This document shows, in pieces, positions 3,377-60,565 of a stretch of DNA of 64,000 nucleotides (position 1 is its first letter; each line of letters begins with the position of its first letter). The position numbers and the translations under genes are program-made. The notes beneath the pieces were generated by a model. It searched no databases, was not told where the DNA came from, and saw only the letters and a program-made list of their open reading frames with translations. The stretch spans positions 232,978 to 296,977 of the forward strand of contig CAVVCK010000002.1 in NCBI GenBank assembly GCA_963746775.1, in the 5' to 3' direction. Source of the DNA: an uncultured bacterium (lineage in GTDB: Bacteria; Patescibacteriota; JABMPQ01; CAVVCK01).

Positions 3377-3481
3377 ATTTATTTCTAATCATCTTGGAAT
3401 AACACGGCTTTAGCCTATTATCTCAATACCTTAGAAACATGCAAAAGCTTATCATTACTTATTTTGTTCAAATATTTAACT

Positions 3482-4261
3482 TTAAATAACTTTGAATAAG
3501 AAAAGTATTAAAAATATTAATCCTAAAACAATTCTATAATAGCCAAAAAAATTAAAGCCATGTTTTTCTACAAATTTAATAAAAAATTTTACTGCCATAT
3601 ATGCAGCTACAAAAGCAACTAAACCTCCTAGCAATAAAAGAAATATTTCATAGCCACCTATATTGGCTGGAGTTTTTAATAAATCATAAGCTGTAGCCGC
3701 CAACATGGTAGGTACAGCTAATAAAAAAGAAAATTCCATAGCTTGTTTTTTATTAAAACCTCTGAATATGCCGCCAATAATAGTAGCGGCTGCCCTGGAT
3801 ACTCCGGGAACCATAGAAATGCTTTGAAAAAGTCCAATTAAAAAAGCGTTTTTATAACTAATATCTTCTAAGTCTTTATATTTAGAATCATTACTAACTA
3901 CTTTTTTATTAATTAAAATAAGTATTACACCACCTATAACCAGAGTTATAGATACAACTAGAGGACTAAATAAATACGTTTTTATAATTTTATAAAAAAG
4001 AAATCCTAAAATAGCTGTCGGGAAAAAGGCAACAAATAGTTTTTTATAAATAGTAAATGATTTTAAAAATCGACGAACATATAAAATTACTATCGCTAAA
4101 ATAGCTCCTATCTGAATTGCAATTTCAAAAGTTTTTAAAAAATCATCTTCTTTTAATCTTAATAAAGCCGAAGCTAAAATCATATGCCCTGTAGAAGAAA
4201 TAGGTAAGAATTCTGTTAAGCCTTCAACTATACCTAAAATTATGGTGTTGATAATGTTCAT
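3482..4261 (-). CDS. uppP: Undecaprenyl-diphosphatase UppP (BacA)
   Basis: N-terminal LGIVEGLTEFLPISSTGH motif, 259 aa polytopic membrane protein. Confidence 0.85.
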   Translation of the reverse strand: MNIINTIILGIVEGLTEFLPISSTGHMILASALLRLKEDDFLKTFEIAIQIGAILAIVILYVRRFLKSFTIYKKLFVAFFPTAILGFLFYKIIKTYLFSPLVVSITLVIGGVILILINKKVVSNDSKYKDLEDISYKNAFLIGLFQSISMVPGVSRAAATIIGGIFRGFNKKQAMEFSFLLAVPTMLAATAYDLLKTPANIGGYEIFLLLLGGLVAFVAAYMAVKFFIKFVEKHGFNFFGYYRIVLGLIFLILFLFKVI

Positions 4262-10262: not shown

Positions 10263-11687
10263 TTATTTTACTTCATGTATCTTTATAAGGTTAGTATTTC
10301 CTTTTAAACCTACTGGCTGTCCGCCGATAATAATAATCTTATCTCCTTTTTTTACAATTTTTTTAGTTAGAGATAATTTTACTGCTTCTTCTATTAATTC
10401 ATCAACATTACTACATTGTGGTAAAACATAAGGCACTACCCCCCACGATAGAGCTAGTTGTCTTCTAATTTTTTCACTTTCAGCAGTTACAATAATGGGT
10501 AGTTCTGGCCTGTGCCTTGATACCATCCGAGCAGTATTACCCGATATAGTAGCCACTAAAATTGCTTTTGCTCTTACATCCCTGGCTAGCATAGAACCAG
10601 CCATGGAAACCGCAGCATTAATAGAAATTATTTTTTTTTCACGTTCGCTAGCAATTACATCATCATAATGAGACTCTTCTGTATTTTTAATAATATCTGA
10701 CATTGTTTGTACTGTTTCTACCGGATATTTTCCTACAGCTGATTCCTGTGATAACATAACTGCATCTGTATGATCTATAACTGCATTAGCCACATCTGAA
10801 ATCTCCGCTCTGGTCGGTTTAGGATTTTCTACCATAGAGAGTAACATTTGCGTAGCTGTAATAGCAGGCTTAGCTTTTTTTAAACACTTATATATTATAT
10901 CTTTTTGGATAATAGGTAATTTTTCCATCGGTGTTTCTATTCCTAGATCACCTCTAGCAATCATAATCCCATCAGATACTTCCAATATTTTATCAATATT
11001 TTTAACCGCTTCATGTTTTTCAATTTTAGCAATTACTTTTACTTTTTCCTTTATTTTATATTTTATTTCTAATTTTTTGATTCTTTCTTTTAAATCTAAT
11101 ATATCGTTTTCATCTTTTACAAAAGATAGGGCTACCCAATCTACATTGTTTTTAACAGCAAATTCTAAATCCTGAATATCTTTTTCGGTCGTTGCTGGAA
11201 TATGCAGTGTAGCTGTAGCTACATTAATGCTTTTATTAGAAAATATTTCTCCCCCTAATATAACTTTACATCTGATATCTCTTTCAATAACTTCTATTAC
11301 CTCTAGTTTTAATAAACCATCATTTAATAATAATATGTCATCTTTACCTACATCTTTATGTAAATTAGAATAGGTGACAGGAATCTTATCACTACTATCA
11401 TTACTAGTGGTTAATATCACTTCACTGCCCTCCTTTAATTCTATACCATCTTTTTTTAAAGCACCTATTCTTACTCTCGGCCCCTGCAGGTCAGCCAGAA
11501 ATGCTACAGGATGATCCATCTCTCTGGCAACTTGCCTAATAAATTTTATCAGCTCGGCATGTTCAGCATAGATTCCATGAGAAAAATTAAGCCTAGCACA
11601 ATCCATACCAGCTTTAATCATTTTCTTTAAAACTTCGGTATTACGAGAGGCAGGACCTATTGTACAAACTATTTTTGTTCTTTTCAC
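10263..11687 (-). CDS. pyk: Pyruvate kinase
   Basis: MKRTKIVCTIGPAS...ARLNFSHG; 474 aa with typical PK barrel and C-terminal domains. Confidence 0.9.
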   Translation of the reverse strand: MKRTKIVCTIGPASRNTEVLKKMIKAGMDCARLNFSHGIYAEHAELIKFIRQVAREMDHPVAFLADLQGPRVRIGALKKDGIELKEGSEVILTTSNDSSDKIPVTYSNLHKDVGKDDILLLNDGLLKLEVIEVIERDIRCKVILGGEIFSNKSINVATATLHIPATTEKDIQDLEFAVKNNVDWVALSFVKDENDILDLKERIKKLEIKYKIKEKVKVIAKIEKHEAVKNIDKILEVSDGIMIARGDLGIETPMEKLPIIQKDIIYKCLKKAKPAITATQMLLSMVENPKPTRAEISDVANAVIDHTDAVMLSQESAVGKYPVETVQTMSDIIKNTEESHYDDVIASEREKKIISINAAVSMAGSMLARDVRAKAILVATISGNTARMVSRHRPELPIIVTAESEKIRRQLALSWGVVPYVLPQCSNVDELIEEAVKLSLTKKIVKKGDKIIIIGGQPVGLKGNTNLIKIHEVK

Positions 11688-29367: not shown

Positions 29368-29385
29368 TGTCTTTGTTCTTAATAT

Positions 29386-29440
29386 TTACCACTTTCCCCC
29401 ACTTTTTTCCATCTATTACCATTGTACTCCACTTTTATAT
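29386..29440. promoter_or_regulatory. Candidate MraZ operator: three GTGG(N) direct repeats upstream of mraZ
   Basis: Minus-strand AAGTGGAG ... AAGTGGGGG-AAGTGGTAA (plus-strand CCAC boxes at ~29389, 29399, 29430); 10-bp spacing of two boxes as in known MraZ sites. Confidence 0.35.
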
Positions 29441-32775: not shown

Positions 32776-32848
32776 CTTCGTAGGGAACAAATATTTTTGT
32801 TCCCTACATTCAAATAAAAAACAACGAGTTAATCGTTGTTTTTTTTAT
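32776..32848. terminator. Two consecutive hairpins; second is a canonical bidirectional intrinsic terminator
   Basis: GTAGGGAACAaatatttTTGTTCCCTAC then aaaACAACGAgttaaTCGTTGTtttttttt between convergent 723-aa ORF and rplL. Confidence 0.55.
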
Positions 32849-32892
32849 ATCCGCATTAATCCGCGTTATTATCCGCGTATTTCCGCTTATAT

Positions 32893-33237
32893 TTACTTTA
32901 ATTCTACAGTTGCACCAGCATCTTCTAATTTCTTTTTTAATTCTTCTGCTTCAGCCTTAGCTACATTTTCTTTAATTACTGTTGGAGCTTTATCAACTAG
33001 ATCCTTAGCATCTTTTAATCCCTTACCCGTTACCTCTTTAACTACTTTAATAACTGCAATTTTTTGACCACCAGCATCTTTTAATTCAACATTAAAAGCT
33101 GATTTTTCTTCTGCAGCAGCACCAGCTTCACCACCCGCACCGGGAGCAGCCATCATAGCCGCTACTGGAGCAGAAGCAGACACACCAAATTTTTCTTCTA
33201 AAACTTTTACTAACTCGGCCAAATCTAGTACGCTCAT
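32893..33237 (-). CDS. rplL: 50S ribosomal protein L7/L12 (annotated ORF is N-terminally short; conserved N-domain continues upstream in frame without a start codon)
   Basis: [19 protein letters not shown]... hinge [15 protein letters not shown] ... C-terminal domain; in-frame upstream codons encode ...[13 protein letters not shown] (L12 N-helix) but no ATG/GTG/TTG; out-of-frame ATG at 33380 next to an A7 run. Confidence 0.8.
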
Positions 33238-33479
33238 TTTTTCAATTTCTTCTACTAAGCTTTTAAATTTAGCAGGAACTTCAACATCCTTGTCCGCCGT
33301 AGATTTATCAGAAGCGGGCTTTTTTTCTTCTTTTTCAGAAGTTTTTTCTTCCTTCTTTTCTTCTTTTTTTCTTCGGTCATAATTTTATAATTATTTAGTT
33401 ATTTAATAATATTTCCACATCAATCCGCGCTTGCCCGCCGATGAGGCAGGTTGCTATCCGCGAATATCCGCTTGTATTT

Positions 33480-34004
33480 TTAACTTTTTGCTTCTTTTAT
33501 ATTATTCAAAACAGAAACCAAGCCTCGCAAATTTCCAGCTAATACATTAACAAAGCCAGATACAGGAGCATTAATACTACCAACTACTTTGGCTAATAAT
33601 TCTTCCTTAGACGGTAATTTTGCTAAAGCAGTAACTTCATTTTCATCTAAATATTTTCCTTCTAGAATTCCCCCAGACATTTTTGGCACTTCTTTGCCTT
33701 TAGCAAATGTATAAATCTCTTTAGCAGCTACTACCTCATCAGCAAAACCAAAGCCTAGAGCAAGGGGTCCTTTCATTTCCCCTATTTCAATTCCTTTCAG
33801 TTCTGATTGATCTAGCGCTTTTTGGAATAAGCTGTTTTTAATAACTTTATAATCCCCTTCTTTCTCTTGGATCTTATTTCTTAGCTCCTGAATATCACCA
33901 ACAGTTAAGCCTTGATAATTAGTAAAAACTAAAGATTTAGATTTATTTAAATCTTCTACTAAATCTTGCACTATTTTTTCTTTCTCTTTTCTTGTTTTTG
34001 GCAT
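33480..34004 (-). CDS. rplJ: 50S ribosomal protein L10
   Basis: MPKTRKEKEKIVQDLVEDL...VFTNYQGLTVGDIQELR typical L10 N-terminus. Confidence 0.9.
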   Translation of the reverse strand: MPKTRKEKEKIVQDLVEDLNKSKSLVFTNYQGLTVGDIQELRNKIQEKEGDYKVIKNSLFQKALDQSELKGIEIGEMKGPLALGFGFADEVVAAKEIYTFAKGKEVPKMSGGILEGKYLDENEVTALAKLPSKEELLAKVVGSINAPVSGFVNVLAGNLRGLVSVLNNIKEAKS

Positions 34005-34019
34005 AATTTTCGATGCTAA

Positions 34020-34330
34020 TATACGAATTGATACTAATTATACTAATAATATTCGTATCATTCATATTAATTAGTATATTTGTATCGATTTAATAAAAAA
34101 ATCCCTGTTACCACAGAGACACATATCACGCTATTTGCGCTTTTCTACCTCAGTGAGATTTTAATTCCTTTTTATGTGGAAACTCACTATCTGTGGTAAT
34201 GTAATTAGTATATATTATTGAATTTTGATGTCAAGAATATTTGCTAAAAATATTAAAAAACAGGATGCAATCCTGCTCTGCAGCTCTAGACTAAAACTAT
34301 ACATCTTAAACATCTCCAACATTTTCAACA
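34020..34330 (-). promoter_or_regulatory. Structured rplJ leader region (candidate L10 autoregulatory leader)
   Basis: Inverted repeats gttaccacag/ctgtggtaa, ctcagtgag/ctcact, caggatgcaatcctg within 300 nt upstream of rplJ. Confidence 0.35.
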
Positions 34331-36489: not shown

Positions 36490-36694
36490 TACTGTATATT
36501 ATTTATACATTAATTTTTCTAAAATTTACCTTTTCAATAATTTAAGGCCTATAATTATTAAAATATTAAAAATTCCTAACATCCAATTCCTAATTACTAA
36601 TAAAATGTCTAATTTATAATTTTTTAAAAAATAATTATATTATTAAACATTTTAATTTTTATTGAAAATTAGAAATTAGTAATTGGAAATTTTC

Positions 36695-37562: not shown

Positions 37563-38079
37563 TCAATTATCCTCGACCTCTGTAATTACCCTATTTAAGC
37601 ATATTTTAAGCCAATGTGTATAATTTTTTGGGTTTAGGGCTATATCTTGTTTTAAATCATCTAATTTTACCCATTTCCAATCAGATGCTTCTCTTGAATT
37701 AATCCCAGGATTTTCATTGTAATAACCAATAAATACATGGTCAAATTCATTTTCTGTCAAATTATTGCTAAATTTAACCTCATACATAAAACTAAAAATC
37801 TCCTTCAAATCACATCTAAAACCCATTTCTTCTTCCAATCTTTTTTCCGCTCCATTTAAGATTTCTTCTCCAGGCTTTGGATGACTGCAACACGTATTAG
37901 AACCATAAGCTAGGGCTATGATATTTACTTGCTGCCCGTTTCTGCAACATTAATTCATTTTTGTCATTAAAAATAAATACAGAAAAAGCACGATGTAGTT
38001 GACCTGCCTTATGCACTGCCATTTTCTCACCCTCTCCAATTTCATTATCATCTTTATCTACTAAAATAATTTTGTCCAT
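37563..38079 (-). pseudogene. idi: Isopentenyl-diphosphate delta-isomerase (type 1, Nudix) split by a +1 frameshift
   Basis: ORF 37897..38079 ends ...LHRAFSVFIFN...LQKRAASKYHSPSLWF*; shifting one base at tggttctaat gives W-S-N-T-C-C-S-H-P-K-P-G-E (conserved IDI TNxCCSHP Cys motif) continuing into ORF 37563..37838. Confidence 0.7.
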
Positions 38080-42465: not shown

Positions 42466-42507
42466 CAGGGGCGGTAGGAATCGAACCTACGTCGCTGGTT
42501 TTGGAGA
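42466..42507 (-). tRNA. 3' portion (nt 31-73) of a split tRNA-Trp(CCA)
   Basis: Minus strand TCTC-CAAA-ACCAG-CGAC-GTAGG-TTCGATT-CCTAC-CGCCCCT-G; anticodon-stem 3' strand ACCAG and acceptor 3' strand CGCCCCT complement the 5' portion at 42978..43010. Confidence 0.6.
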
Positions 42508-42562
42508 CATCTGCCTAGAGCACTAGGCAGATGAGCCATCTGCCTAGAGCACTAGGCAGATG
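42508..42562. repeat. Two tandem copies of a 26-bp perfect palindrome CATCTGCCTAGAGCACTAGGCAGATG
   Basis: 11-bp arms plus 4-nt centre; copies at 42508..42533 and 42537..42562 separated by AGC; directly abut anticodon nt TCTC of the tRNA fragment. Confidence 0.8.
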
Positions 42563-42584
42563 AGACCAGCATCACATTATTAAA

Positions 42585-42854
42585 CTATTTTTTATCTTTT
42601 AATTCCAACCTCTTCATTAAACCGTAATATGCAGAACCGCTATTCTTTAATGATTTCTCTCGTTTTAAAGCTAAGTATTTATCATTAAATGATTCATAAT
42701 AAATAAGCTTAATTGGCAAATATTTTTTAGTACTTTTTACCATCCCTTTCTGATGGCTATCAATTCTTTTCTTTAAGTCACTAGAATATCCGATATAGTA
42801 TTTTCTATTTGGCCTTTTTATTTTAAGAATATATACATAAAACATAATCTTCAT
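42585..42854 (-). CDS. GIY-YIG nuclease-domain protein (UPF0213/YhbQ-like, 89 aa)
   Basis: FYVYILKIKRPNRKYYIGYSSDLKKRIDSHQKG...IKLIYYESFNDKYLALKREKSLK; start codon 1 nt after the 3' end of tRNA-Trp. Confidence 0.75.
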   Translation of the reverse strand: MKIMFYVYILKIKRPNRKYYIGYSSDLKKRIDSHQKGMVKSTKKYLPIKLIYYESFNDKYLALKREKSLKNSGSAYYGLMKRLELKDKK

Positions 42855-42855
42855 A

Positions 42856-42926
42856 CAGGAGCGGTAGGAATCGAACCTACACCTCCGGTTTTGGAGACCG
42901 GAATTCTACCACTAAACTACGCTCCC
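42856..42926 (-). tRNA. tRNA-Trp(CCA), intact
   Basis: GGGAGCG-TA-GTTT-AGTGGTA-GAAT-T-CCGGT-CTCCAAA-ACCGG-AGGT-GTAGG-TTCGATT-CCTAC-CGCTCCT-G. Confidence 0.8.
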
Positions 42927-42952
42927 CTTTTAATAATTTTTAGTTTTGGAGC

Positions 42953-42978
42953 CATCTGCCTAGGGCACTAGGCAGATG
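42953..42978. repeat. Third copy of the 26-bp palindrome (CATCTGCCTAGGGCACTAGGCAGATG)
   Basis: One centre substitution relative to the tandem pair; again inserted after anticodon nt 34 of a tRNA-Trp 5' portion. Confidence 0.8.
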
Positions 42979-43010
42979 AGACCAGCATTCTACCACTAGA
43001 CCACGCCCCC
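42978..43010 (-). tRNA. 5' portion (nt 1-34) of the split tRNA-Trp(CCA)
   Basis: Minus strand GGGGGCG-TG-GTCT-AGTGGTA-GAAT-G-CTGGT-CTC; complements the 3' portion at 42466..42507 in acceptor and anticodon stems. Confidence 0.6.
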
Positions 43011-43192
43011 ATGCACTAAATACCAAAATACAAAAAACAAACTACAAAAATATATTATTGATTTTTATAATTTCTAATTTAGAATTTGTAATTTGTTTGG
43101 AAATTGATTATTGAAAATTGGAAATTTTTAACCAATTTCCTTATATGTACATTTAAAATAAATTGAAGCTTGGCTAGTGCGTCTATTTCGTT

Positions 43193-43530: not shown

Positions 43531-44427
43531 TCATTTCACAAACTTCAAATATTGTATTATCCATATCCCGCCTTCTCCTTCTTTAACTGGCTGTCTTAAA
43601 TAAACCTTATATTCAGAATTCAGATGATTAACTTTCATATAAACTTCGCTATTATTTTTAGATACTATTACACTTTTTATATCTTCCAGATCATATCTAA
43701 ACATATTAGCAATATCATGATTCGTCGTCTCTATGGGATCAAGCCGCCATAAATCATTTCCATTATCAATTGATTGCTGCATACCCTGCATTGTATCCTT
43801 GCTTACTGGAAAATAAAATATTTCAGTGGATTTAAAAGTTTTCTGCCATTCACCATCTTTATTCTTCTCATAGTATTGCAAGGGTCTATCTATAAATGGA
43901 TCATTGCCTTCATTCAATTCCCATATAAAATTATTGGGAGTAAAATCAGCAATTCTTGAACAATTAACAGTTTCGCTTGATTTGACACAATAAACTAAAA
44001 TACGACCCAAGGCATGATCATCGTTATATTCAACATAGAAATTACTATTATTTACAAAAGAAAATTTATTAATGGTCCACTCTGGATCATTGTTAGATAA
44101 AAATGGAGTTAATTGATTTATGTTGTTTTCTGTATAATCAATAAATTCTTTTCTTAAATTATCATCTACGGTTTCAACTTCTCCCTCTCGGTTATAAATA
44201 TCAGAATTTAAAACATTTTCTTTGTTTAAATCTAAATATTTTTGATTAGTATTAATAATATTTTTAGATTTTTCTTGATAAATTTTTAATGAAAAATAAA
44301 ATAAAATACCTAAAATTATGAGGCACAAAATAACTATTAATATTTTACCTGCTTTTTTCATCTTGATCTTATTTATAAATACGAACCACAAAATTAAACA
44401 ACTATCTACAGTGACCACTAAATCCAC
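43531..44427 (-). CDS. Hypothetical membrane-anchored/secreted protein
   Basis: Probable true start at MKKAGKILIVILCLIILGILF signal-anchor; no family recognised. Confidence 0.4.
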   Translation of the reverse strand: MDLVVTVDSCLILWFVFINKIKMKKAGKILIVILCLIILGILFYFSLKIYQEKSKNIINTNQKYLDLNKENVLNSDIYNREGEVETVDDNLRKEFIDYTENNINQLTPFLSNNDPEWTINKFSFVNNSNFYVEYNDDHALGRILVYCVKSSETVNCSRIADFTPNNFIWELNEGNDPFIDRPLQYYEKNKDGEWQKTFKSTEIFYFPVSKDTMQGMQQSIDNGNDLWRLDPIETTNHDIANMFRYDLEDIKSVIVSKNNSEVYMKVNHLNSEYKVYLRQPVKEGEGGIWIIQYLKFVK

Positions 44428-44482
44428 TCCATCCGTAACATTAAAAATAGCGGATAAGGCGGATTGTTGCGGATAGGCGGAA
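44421..44482. repeat. Array of GCGGAT hexamers (8-10-bp spacing) preceded by inverted ATCCAC/ATCCGT
   Basis: aatccactccatccgtaac ... aGCGGATaagGCGGATtgttGCGGATagGCGGAaaaa; same motif (as ATCCGC) clustered at 32849..32886 and 33411..33471. Confidence 0.6.
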
Positions 44483-44571
44483 AAAATATAAAGAATCTTG
44501 TAATCAGCATTTACAATGAAATTCTATCATAATAAAAAAATGTAAACAATCATTTTGTTTACATTTTTTTA

Positions 44572-59195: not shown

Positions 59196-60565
<1,370 letters not shown>

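Follow-up and report, generated by a model that had tools for sequence, protein, structure and literature searches.

The rplL gene in the 64-kb stretch of DNA analyzed here (the window; ~31% GC, with the majority of its genes on the - strand) lies between two phased arrays of a GC-rich hexamer, which raises the question of what such arrays do beside a core ribosomal protein gene: do they act as binding sites for a regulator, or did they arrive by another route? The L10 protein encoded by the adjacent rplJ gene has its best matches in Magasanikbacteria-like Patescibacteria MAGs (50-54% identity among species-representative genomes). It had been proposed that the ATCCGC arrays, spaced by about one helical turn, bind a protein cooperatively on one DNA face in an OmpR/PhoB-like or DnaA-like mode. 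Below we describe the arrays and their operon, their relatives in other genomes and metagenomes, the gene family that they enclose elsewhere, and the readings that have to be weighed.

Phased GCGGAT arrays in the window

The rplJ-rplL pair (Table 1) is preceded on its 5' side by mltG/yceG, a mannose-1-phosphate guanylyltransferase gene and uppS, and is followed on its 3' side by a 723-aa ORF in convergent orientation, beyond which lies the mraZ-mraW-ftsL-PBP-mur cluster. A promoter and a match to the L10 leader lie ahead of rplJ, so the operon is already equipped with its usual control element. In an Rfam scan, only tRNAs and this L10 leader were matched, and the GCGGAT arrays corresponded to no family. 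The reading frame of rplL is itself apparently frameshifted: the ATG at 33380 and the remainder of the gene are in different frames, with the shift located in an A-run among the first codons (33340-33380, - strand), and the sequence is the same in a nearly identical Logan contig. In relatives the gene is intact, encodes 150-154 aa and has the same lysine- and glutamate-rich N-terminal extension. Elsewhere in the window, a one-base frameshift near 60025 (...GGTTACTCGTATTTGCTGGAGTAGGTGAA...) divides the ATP synthase beta subunit (59196-60556, - strand) between two ORFs, and a NUDIX ORF (37563-37838) is truncated relative to its counterparts in relatives; this suggests that the split and truncated genes are either assembly indel errors or real pseudogenes.

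Table 1. Arrays, operon elements and mraZ repeats in the window.
Feature	Position	Strand	Description
Array 1	32847-32891	-	Four direct GCGGA(T/A) cores, spacing 10-12-10 nt; intact solo copy
Array 2	33411-33476	-	In the rplJ-rplL spacer; four-unit block as in array 1, interrupted by a 21-nt insertion
Insertion in array 2	33429-33449	-	21 nt, GC-rich, ctgcctcatcggcgggcaagc; 6-bp hairpin possible
Array 3	44450-44481	+	Four GCGGA cores at 44450, 44459, 44469 and 44477; spacing 9-10-8 nt
rplJ	33480-34004		Forms a two-gene unit with rplL
rplL	32893 to ~33380	-	Stop codon 32893-32895
rplJ-rplL spacer			99 nt
rplJ promoter	34234-34207		Near-consensus sigma-70-like, TTGACA-16-TATACT
L10 leader match	34086-34214		5' of rplJ; 41.6 bits (gathering score 44), E = 7e-5
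Bidirectional terminator hairpin	~32817-32846		After rplL
mraZ repeats	29385-29440	-	(A)AAGTGG / ATGG direct repeats ~10-11 nt apart, just 5' of the mraZ start; typical MraZ-binding type

The arrays on either side of rplL are real, with their cores where the original prediction had placed them, and on the rplJL transcript they read as GCGGAU, as it had also anticipated. Array 1, which in the rplL sense reads taaatataaGCGGAaatacGCGGAtaataacGCGGAttaatGCGGAtat, fills the gap between the rplL stop codon and the terminator hairpin that immediately follows; on the + strand its TCCGC cores begin at 32850, 32860, 32872 and 32882. Array 2 reads caaGCGGAtattcGCGGAtagcaac[ctgcctcatcggcgggcaagc]GCGGAttgatGTGGAaat, with the insertion in brackets. 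Three of its cores are TCCGC on the + strand (33424, 33457 and 33467), and the fourth, at 33414-33418, is TCCAC as a result of a GCGGA to GTGGA mutation; judging from the insertion and this mutated core, array 2 is a decaying copy. The hairpin of the insertion is present in the minimum-free-energy fold, and the insertion is unique in the window and all fetched loci save one (L037) on a contig nearly identical to the window. Two positions in the earlier description need amendment: ATTTCCAC starts at 33411 and not at 33413, and the CCCGCC at 33434 that had been counted as a repeat unit falls within the 21-nt insertion, which is missing from the closest relative (L043-L046).

A third cluster had been mentioned without a position. 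It does exist, at 44450-44481, in an orientation opposite to that of the other two, with GCGGA on the + strand (GCGGAtaagGCGGAttgttGCGGAtagGCGGA), antisense to the neighboring genes. On one side of the site is the tRNA-Thr terminator (44533-44571), and on the other the start of a membrane-protein gene (ORF 43531-44427, probable ATG 44362). Array 3 is divergent and lacks the AC flanks; two nearby sequences, at 44422-44427 (ATCCAC) and 44431-44436 (ATCCGT), may be degenerate inverted units, and in the fold positions 44431-44440 pair with 44466-44476. When the feature is defined as at least four direct GCGGA(T) cores at 9-12 nt, arrays 1 and 3 have four cores each, and array 2 has four once its insertion is removed. 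The three window copies have diverged from each other, and the mean core spacing in arrays 1 and 2 is 10.7 nt.

The clustering had been thought too improbable to arise by chance. This holds for the phased clusters: none of 100 first-order Markov simulations contained an array of at least three GCGGA at 8-13 nt, against two four-copy arrays observed, the analytic expectation for such arrays is ~5e-7, and GCGGA is the only GC-rich 5-mer with phased arrays of at least four copies in the 64-kb window. It does not extend to the hexamer as such, which is not enriched overall (13 copies in the window against 9.98 +/- 3.29 expected), although 9 of these 13 copies fall within the three clusters. A hexamer at its expected frequency, in clusters confined to this window, had been named as the outcome that would speak against binding arrays; the frequency is indeed as expected, but phased arrays are not unique to the window and recur in many phyla.

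The arrays belong to a cross-phylum repeat family

Close relatives of the operon were recovered by an L10 protein search at 92, 89, 87 and 86% identity. In the 92% relative, a clean four-unit array with 10-12-10 nt spacing is present at both rplL sites; the block of array 1 is nearly identical there (L043), and the spacer array of this relative is uninterrupted (caaGCGGAtatacGCGGAtaacaacGCGGAttgatGCGGAaata), which indicates that array 2 of the window gained its 21-nt insertion and core mutation. The 87-89% relatives have a 28-nt rplJ-rplL spacer without an array and none after rplL either, with the terminator conserved, and the 86% relative (L038, on the 1.05-Mb contig ERZ1757541 contig_6554) has a different spacer of 194 nt, again without an array. 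The presence of both arrays in the 92% relative and of neither at 86-89% identity points to a lineage-specific gain at two sites. Conservation of both arrays between the window and the 92% relative could reflect function instead of recent common ancestry. In 36 loci from species-representative genomes (L10 identity 36-54%), which are too distant to inform on this point, no TCCGC array was found. Within ~700 nt of the window arrays there is no inverted partner: arrays 1 and 2 point in the same direction, and beside array 3 no more than two degenerate units (44422-44436) are inverted. The arrays of the window thus stand alone, are specific to this lineage and have decayed in part.

Two further observations were made at these sites. 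The L038 spacer (10526-10719) is full of other short direct and inverted repeats (AGTTGAT / ATCAACT), and small repeats seem to have landed more than once in the rplJ-rplL spacer. Separately, L043, L045 and L046 encode the same L10, and L046 departs from the other two after rplL precisely where the downstream array has its outer edge; its divergent sequence (1136-1205) matches nothing else fetched, and the divergence reflects either rearrangement at the array or chimeric assembly.

The family extends well beyond these relatives. A metagenome scan with the pattern GCGGAW-N3-5-GCGGAT-N4-7-GCGGAT-N4-GCGGA returned at least 120 loci with blocks of (AC)GCGGAT decamers, on contigs of 33-73% GC. Among the loci listed, arrays stand alone, occur as inverted pairs, lie inside 16S or 23S rRNA genes, or flank a GxxExxY gene as inverted pairs. 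The 8-mer ACGCGGAT is conserved over this whole range of base composition, with free variation in the 2-4 nt that separate the cores. The layout of the window, namely 10-12-10 nt spacing, a T after the core, an AC before it and a TAGAA-like outer edge, recurs in low-GC, CPR-like contigs, and the consensus of 27 distinct low-GC metagenome arrays is ttaTAGAcGCGGATttACGCGGATtaatACGCGGATttACGCGGATA. Arrays 1 and 2, with outer edges ATATAA and ATACAA, have the layout of this low-GC subfamily, and array 3 does not. When an HMM built from the metagenome arrays only was used to search the window with nhmmer, it returned exactly the three arrays and nothing more: array 1 with E = 8.5e-12, array 2 with E = 2.1e-5, and array 3 as a partial match with E = 0.012, a poor fit to the family given its 9-10-8 spacing and missing AC. 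The arrays are members of a cross-phylum repeat family.

Members of this family occur in varied arrangements. Of the neighboring arrays no more than 160 nt apart among the loci listed, 34 pairs are convergent and 8 divergent, and some pairs form perfect palindromes (e.g. L109 and L149). Low-GC contigs frequently contain solo arrays, many of them only a few bases from the end of an ORF, and these are sense and antisense to neighboring genes about equally often. Two arrays inside rRNA genes can be placed more closely: one lies in a ~160-nt insertion in a 23S rRNA gene near Rfam LSU model positions 1495-1505 (L170), and the other in a 16S rRNA gene that also holds a group I intron and a LAGLIDADG ORF (L143). 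In the same 23S rRNA gene, the classical helix-45 IVS site holds a separate ~140-nt insertion with TCAAT/TTTCAA repeats (L170, ~3470-3620), upstream of the insertion with the GCGGA array. One array is apparently in frame within a Mur-ligase-like ORF (L171, 6666-6701). GCGGAU also matches the 5' end of some tRNA acceptor stems. A loose four-core pattern gave 35 matches in viral contigs that were mostly GC-rich coding repeats or unrelated tandem repeats, and these do not count as evidence for a link to phages. The decamer strings of the arrays were found in no searchable paper.

Complete members of the family bracket a GxxExxY gene

Clustering of the ORFs near the arrays revealed one recurrent family, PF13366 PDDEXK_3 / TIGR04256 'GxxExxY protein', of ~135 aa. 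Five loci (L135, L136, L168, L191 and L195) have a single gene of this family fitted tightly between convergent arrays that are 402-685 nt apart, with few bases to spare at either end, and at four further loci the gene adjoins an array. Among the matches listed, the gene occurs at only 11 of 120 array loci, most of these contigs being short. As a reverse test against circularity, GxxExxY genes from four lineages were picked by protein similarity alone, and all four proved to be flanked by inverted GCNGAT arrays (L210, Liptonbacteria; L214, Omnitrophica; L215, Elusimicrobia; L217) that carry the TAGAA outer edge. A tblastn search of plasmids found only five GxxExxY genes, and their arm motifs were varied: a GCGGAT hairpin adjoins the gene in Gemmatirosa, two Bacteroidota genes lie between inverted CACAGAG arrays, and the motif in Treponema is CACGGATTCG. 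In its complete form, the GCGGAT family brackets a GxxExxY gene.

The two arms of a GxxExxY cassette have the 8-mer in common and differ in the 2-4 bases between units, which points to recognition of the core rather than to simple arm-to-arm pairing. Together with the conservation of the 8-mer on contigs of 33-73% GC, this makes a sequence-specific partner for the arrays plausible. The AlphaFold model of the GxxExxY protein (pLDDT 93) resembles lambda exonuclease, Cas4, MGME1 and Hjc, and residues E35, D74, E84 and K86 are invariant in 42 homologues, as expected of an active PD-(D/E)XK enzyme; as modeled, the protein looks like an active nuclease of this type. A PDB sequence search returned no solved relatives, and the papers found under GxxExxY, PDDEXK_3 and the TIGR numbers contain catalogue mentions only and assign no function. 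In the window and in relatives L001-L049, a local HMM search of the six-frame translation gave no match to a GxxExxY gene. Evidence for recent transposition was sought in an identical GxxExxY protein present on 24 contigs, and this candidate was rejected because the protein always has the same neighbors. No target-site duplication was recognizable in the AT-rich cassette flanks, and no identical array copies were seen at different sites.

A second gene family is housed in a similar manner. Genes of the PF05635 four-helix-bundle family ('23S rRNA IVS protein') are likewise flanked by inverted arms of tandem repeats, with motifs that vary case by case (CAAAT, TTTTCAAT, TCGGC, CGTGAAA, CTAAAC and AAGTGG). 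Several of these genes are located on contigs with GxxExxY genes or GCGGAT arrays, and another is found in relatives of the window organism; as the PF05635 arms differ from GCGGAT on shared contigs, the arm motif goes with the gene family between the arms rather than with the host. The window holds a gene-less inverted-array hairpin of the TTCCAAT/CAAAT type in the uppS-manC gap (36570-36690), and in L039 and L041 this gap contains a PF05635 gene between similar arms, exactly at the site of the hairpin.

A second gene-less inverted-array hairpin of the TTCCAAT/CAAAT type lies at ~43030-43150. Next to it, a tRNA-Trp(CCA) gene is split (42466-43010, - strand), with its 5' half running from 43010 to ~42978 and its 3' half from ~42506 to 42466; joined, the halves form a canonical tRNA-Trp. 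The insert of ~470 nt contains three copies of a 26-nt palindrome, CATCTGCCTAG(T)GC(C/T)CTAGGCAGATG, an intact second tRNA-Trp (42856-42926) and an 89-aa GIY-YIG ORF (42585-42854), and direct repeats of an anticodon-stem segment together with the palindrome flank it. The insert has the appearance of an insertion that carries a nuclease and supplies a tRNA in place of the interrupted one.

Since the GCGGAT family has a complete form that brackets a GxxExxY gene, the window arrays are most likely orphan arms. Our preferred answer to the question posed by rplL is that they are probably the solo arms of an IVS-like or MITE-like selfish cassette, carried as passengers at this gene. The repeat is a ~45-bp block of four direct decamers, each composed of (AC)GCGGAT and 2-4 variable bases, and the complete form has two inverted blocks with a short loop or one GxxExxY nuclease gene (~135 aa) between them. 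Two such blocks would have landed on either side of rplL in a common ancestor with the closest known relative, and would now be passengers on the rplJL transcript, the spacer copy already decaying. Recurring at intervals of roughly one helical turn, the conserved 8-mer may serve as a binding platform for the cassette nuclease, which would mobilize or maintain the cassette. On a transcript, paired arms could form an interrupted stem and be processed in the manner of an rRNA IVS; orphan arms are unable to form this stem and probably have little effect on rplJL expression. From the sequences we infer that the nuclease may bind the arrays and that the cassette is, or was, mobile.

A broader proposal can be advanced only tentatively. 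GCNGAT arrays may be the recognition platform of the GxxExxY nuclease in an undescribed class of nuclease-driven selfish cassettes, distributed from Patescibacteria to high-GC soil bacteria, that settles in operon spacers, coding regions and rRNA genes and whose orphan arms, bound or cut in trans, would be recombination hot spots; one contig with the same L10 loses synteny exactly at the array edge. The combination of repeat and nuclease gene in one cassette is apparently undescribed so far. For annotation, the lesson is that phased GC-rich hexamer arrays beside core genes of AT-rich Patescibacteria should not be read as operators or origins, as they can be repeat debris. GxxExxY (TIGR04256 / PF13366) is moreover a widespread family, and the phased 8-mer arrays that flank its genes in four lineages give it a concrete candidate nucleic-acid substrate.

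Alternative readings and comparison with known systems

The arrays could instead act at the RNA level, the GCGGAU repeats either binding a CsrA-like (GGA-type) protein or protecting or processing rplL so as to raise L7/L12 relative to L10, with array 3 specifying a sponge RNA from the + strand that ends at the bidirectional terminator. Arrays 1 and 2 do bracket rplL exactly and in the appropriate sense, the GCGGAU of array 3 is on the + strand ~50 nt ahead of a bidirectional terminator, some partner arms in paired members read ATCTGC and would be compatible with G-U pairing, and similar IVS arms are cut by RNase III in Coxiella (PMC4990558). Nevertheless, this reading is unlikely. The two orientations of solo arrays are about equally common in other CPR-like contigs, the spacer folds no better than shuffled sequence (z = -1.2), G-to-A variants in L136 are on the arm that would give an A-C mismatch in the gene-sense RNA, and close relatives that need the same L12:L10 ratio are without arrays. 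There is also no convincing + strand promoter just 5' of array 3; the nearest consensus matches (44275-44316) are ~135 nt away, and a promoter scan near the array gave no more sites than shuffled sequence.

That the arrays are operators for a host transcription factor (OmpR/PhoB-like or other), bound cooperatively on one DNA face and controlling rplJL and the neighbor of array 3, is improbable. The geometry is suitable, as direct repeats averaging 10.7 bp would place all four sites of arrays 1 and 2 on one helical face, and both the conservation of the core and the retention of the two rplL arrays in the closest relative would be expected of operators. However, relatives whose L10 is 86-89% identical do without the arrays, and arrays 1 and 2 are situated within and after the operon, whose promoter and L10 leader are upstream at 34086-34234. 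Members of the family elsewhere are found by unrelated genes, in both orientations, in rRNA genes and around a nuclease gene, and the window encodes no response regulator. Of the cooperative binding that was originally proposed, the non-random clustering and a plausible sequence-specific partner survive, whereas neither the OmpR/PhoB-like nor the DnaA-like mode is supported. A regulatory reading of the arrays is most likely wrong.

It is very unlikely that the arrays are local minisatellites generated by replication slippage independently at each site, with neither common origin nor partner. Unit number does vary widely in some metagenome loci (from 5 to 16), but a single window has the same core at three sites apart from each other, the 27 distinct metagenome arrays repeat the fixed layout of four units at 10-12-10 along with its edge motif, and inverted pairing and the link to one gene family are not expected of slippage.

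The idea of a DnaA-box cluster (oriC-like, or a datA/DARS-like titration site) or of low-affinity MraZ sites, for which it can be said that CGCGGATAA is two transitions from the DnaA-box reverse complement TGTGGATAA, that one unit of array 2 reads TGTGGAAAT and that MraZ, encoded 3.5 kb away, also uses direct repeats ~10 nt apart, can be set aside as exceedingly improbable: no array unit is within one mismatch of TTATCCACA, the family consensus has a G where the DnaA box has an A across phyla, the window has no dnaA gene and a GC skew that is monotonic and negative throughout, with no change of sign, and the arrays track the nuclease gene and not dnaA or mraZ. Specifically, the 27 DnaA-box-like 9-mers in the window (at most one mismatch) are unclustered and at chance frequency, and none is in an array. 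The repeats that precede mraZ itself have a different core, (A)AAGTGG and not GCGGAT, and MraZ sites were rejected as a candidate.

The window arrays, as probable orphan arms of a selfish cassette, can be compared with four kinds of known systems. They are reminiscent of the low-affinity, same-orientation DnaA arrays in oriC, in that direct sites are about one helical turn apart and the core is two transitions off; unlike DnaA-box clusters, they fail the one-mismatch test, are without an origin context and have a distribution of the mobile-element type. Pho boxes (OmpR/PhoB) and MraZ repeats likewise have a 5-7-bp core that recurs in direct orientation two to five times at 10-11 bp, but the GCGGAT arrays have another core, are situated outside promoters, lack conservation at orthologous positions and have no cognate regulator encoded in the window. 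There is also a similarity to MITEs and to REP/REPIN elements (with their RAYT transposases): all are short, non-coding, multi-copy intergenic repeats, often in inverted pairs and associated with one protein family, and solo and paired forms coexist. The GCGGAT family differs from these in that its arms are composed of tandem decamers and not of a single terminal inverted repeat or palindrome, its protein is a minimal PD-(D/E)XK nuclease and not a Y1 or DDE transposase, and neither target-site duplications nor identical copies at different sites were seen.

The remaining comparison is with rRNA IVS. The Coxiella IVS has been described as a selfish element with an S23p ORF; tandem GACAGAT heptamers, whose number is strain-variable, lie 5' of this ORF, the first of them being the site of RNase III cleavage (PMC4990558). 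For CPR rRNA genes, a survey of insertions lists many that are short and ORF-less, probably IVS, together with PF05635 ORFs, and does not describe GCGGAT arrays (PMC11270868). Unlike rRNA IVS, the window copies are outside rRNA and unpaired, in an mRNA spacer and a 3' UTR, and as single arms they leave no RNase III stem possible. The GCGGAT cassette gene also encodes a PD-(D/E)XK GxxExxY nuclease and not S23p, and in contrast to four-helix-bundle cassettes, each with its own motif, the GxxExxY arm core ACGCGGAT is conserved across phyla. Nevertheless, in the GCGGAT family as in the rRNA IVS of Coxiella and Leptospira, a small ORF or none is placed between inverted arms containing short tandem repeats, the elements are sporadic among relatives, and some members of the GCGGAT family are inside rRNA genes. 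GxxExxY genes are thereby tied to the long-unexplained ORF-bearing rRNA IVS through one design, a small gene between inverted tandem-repeat arms.
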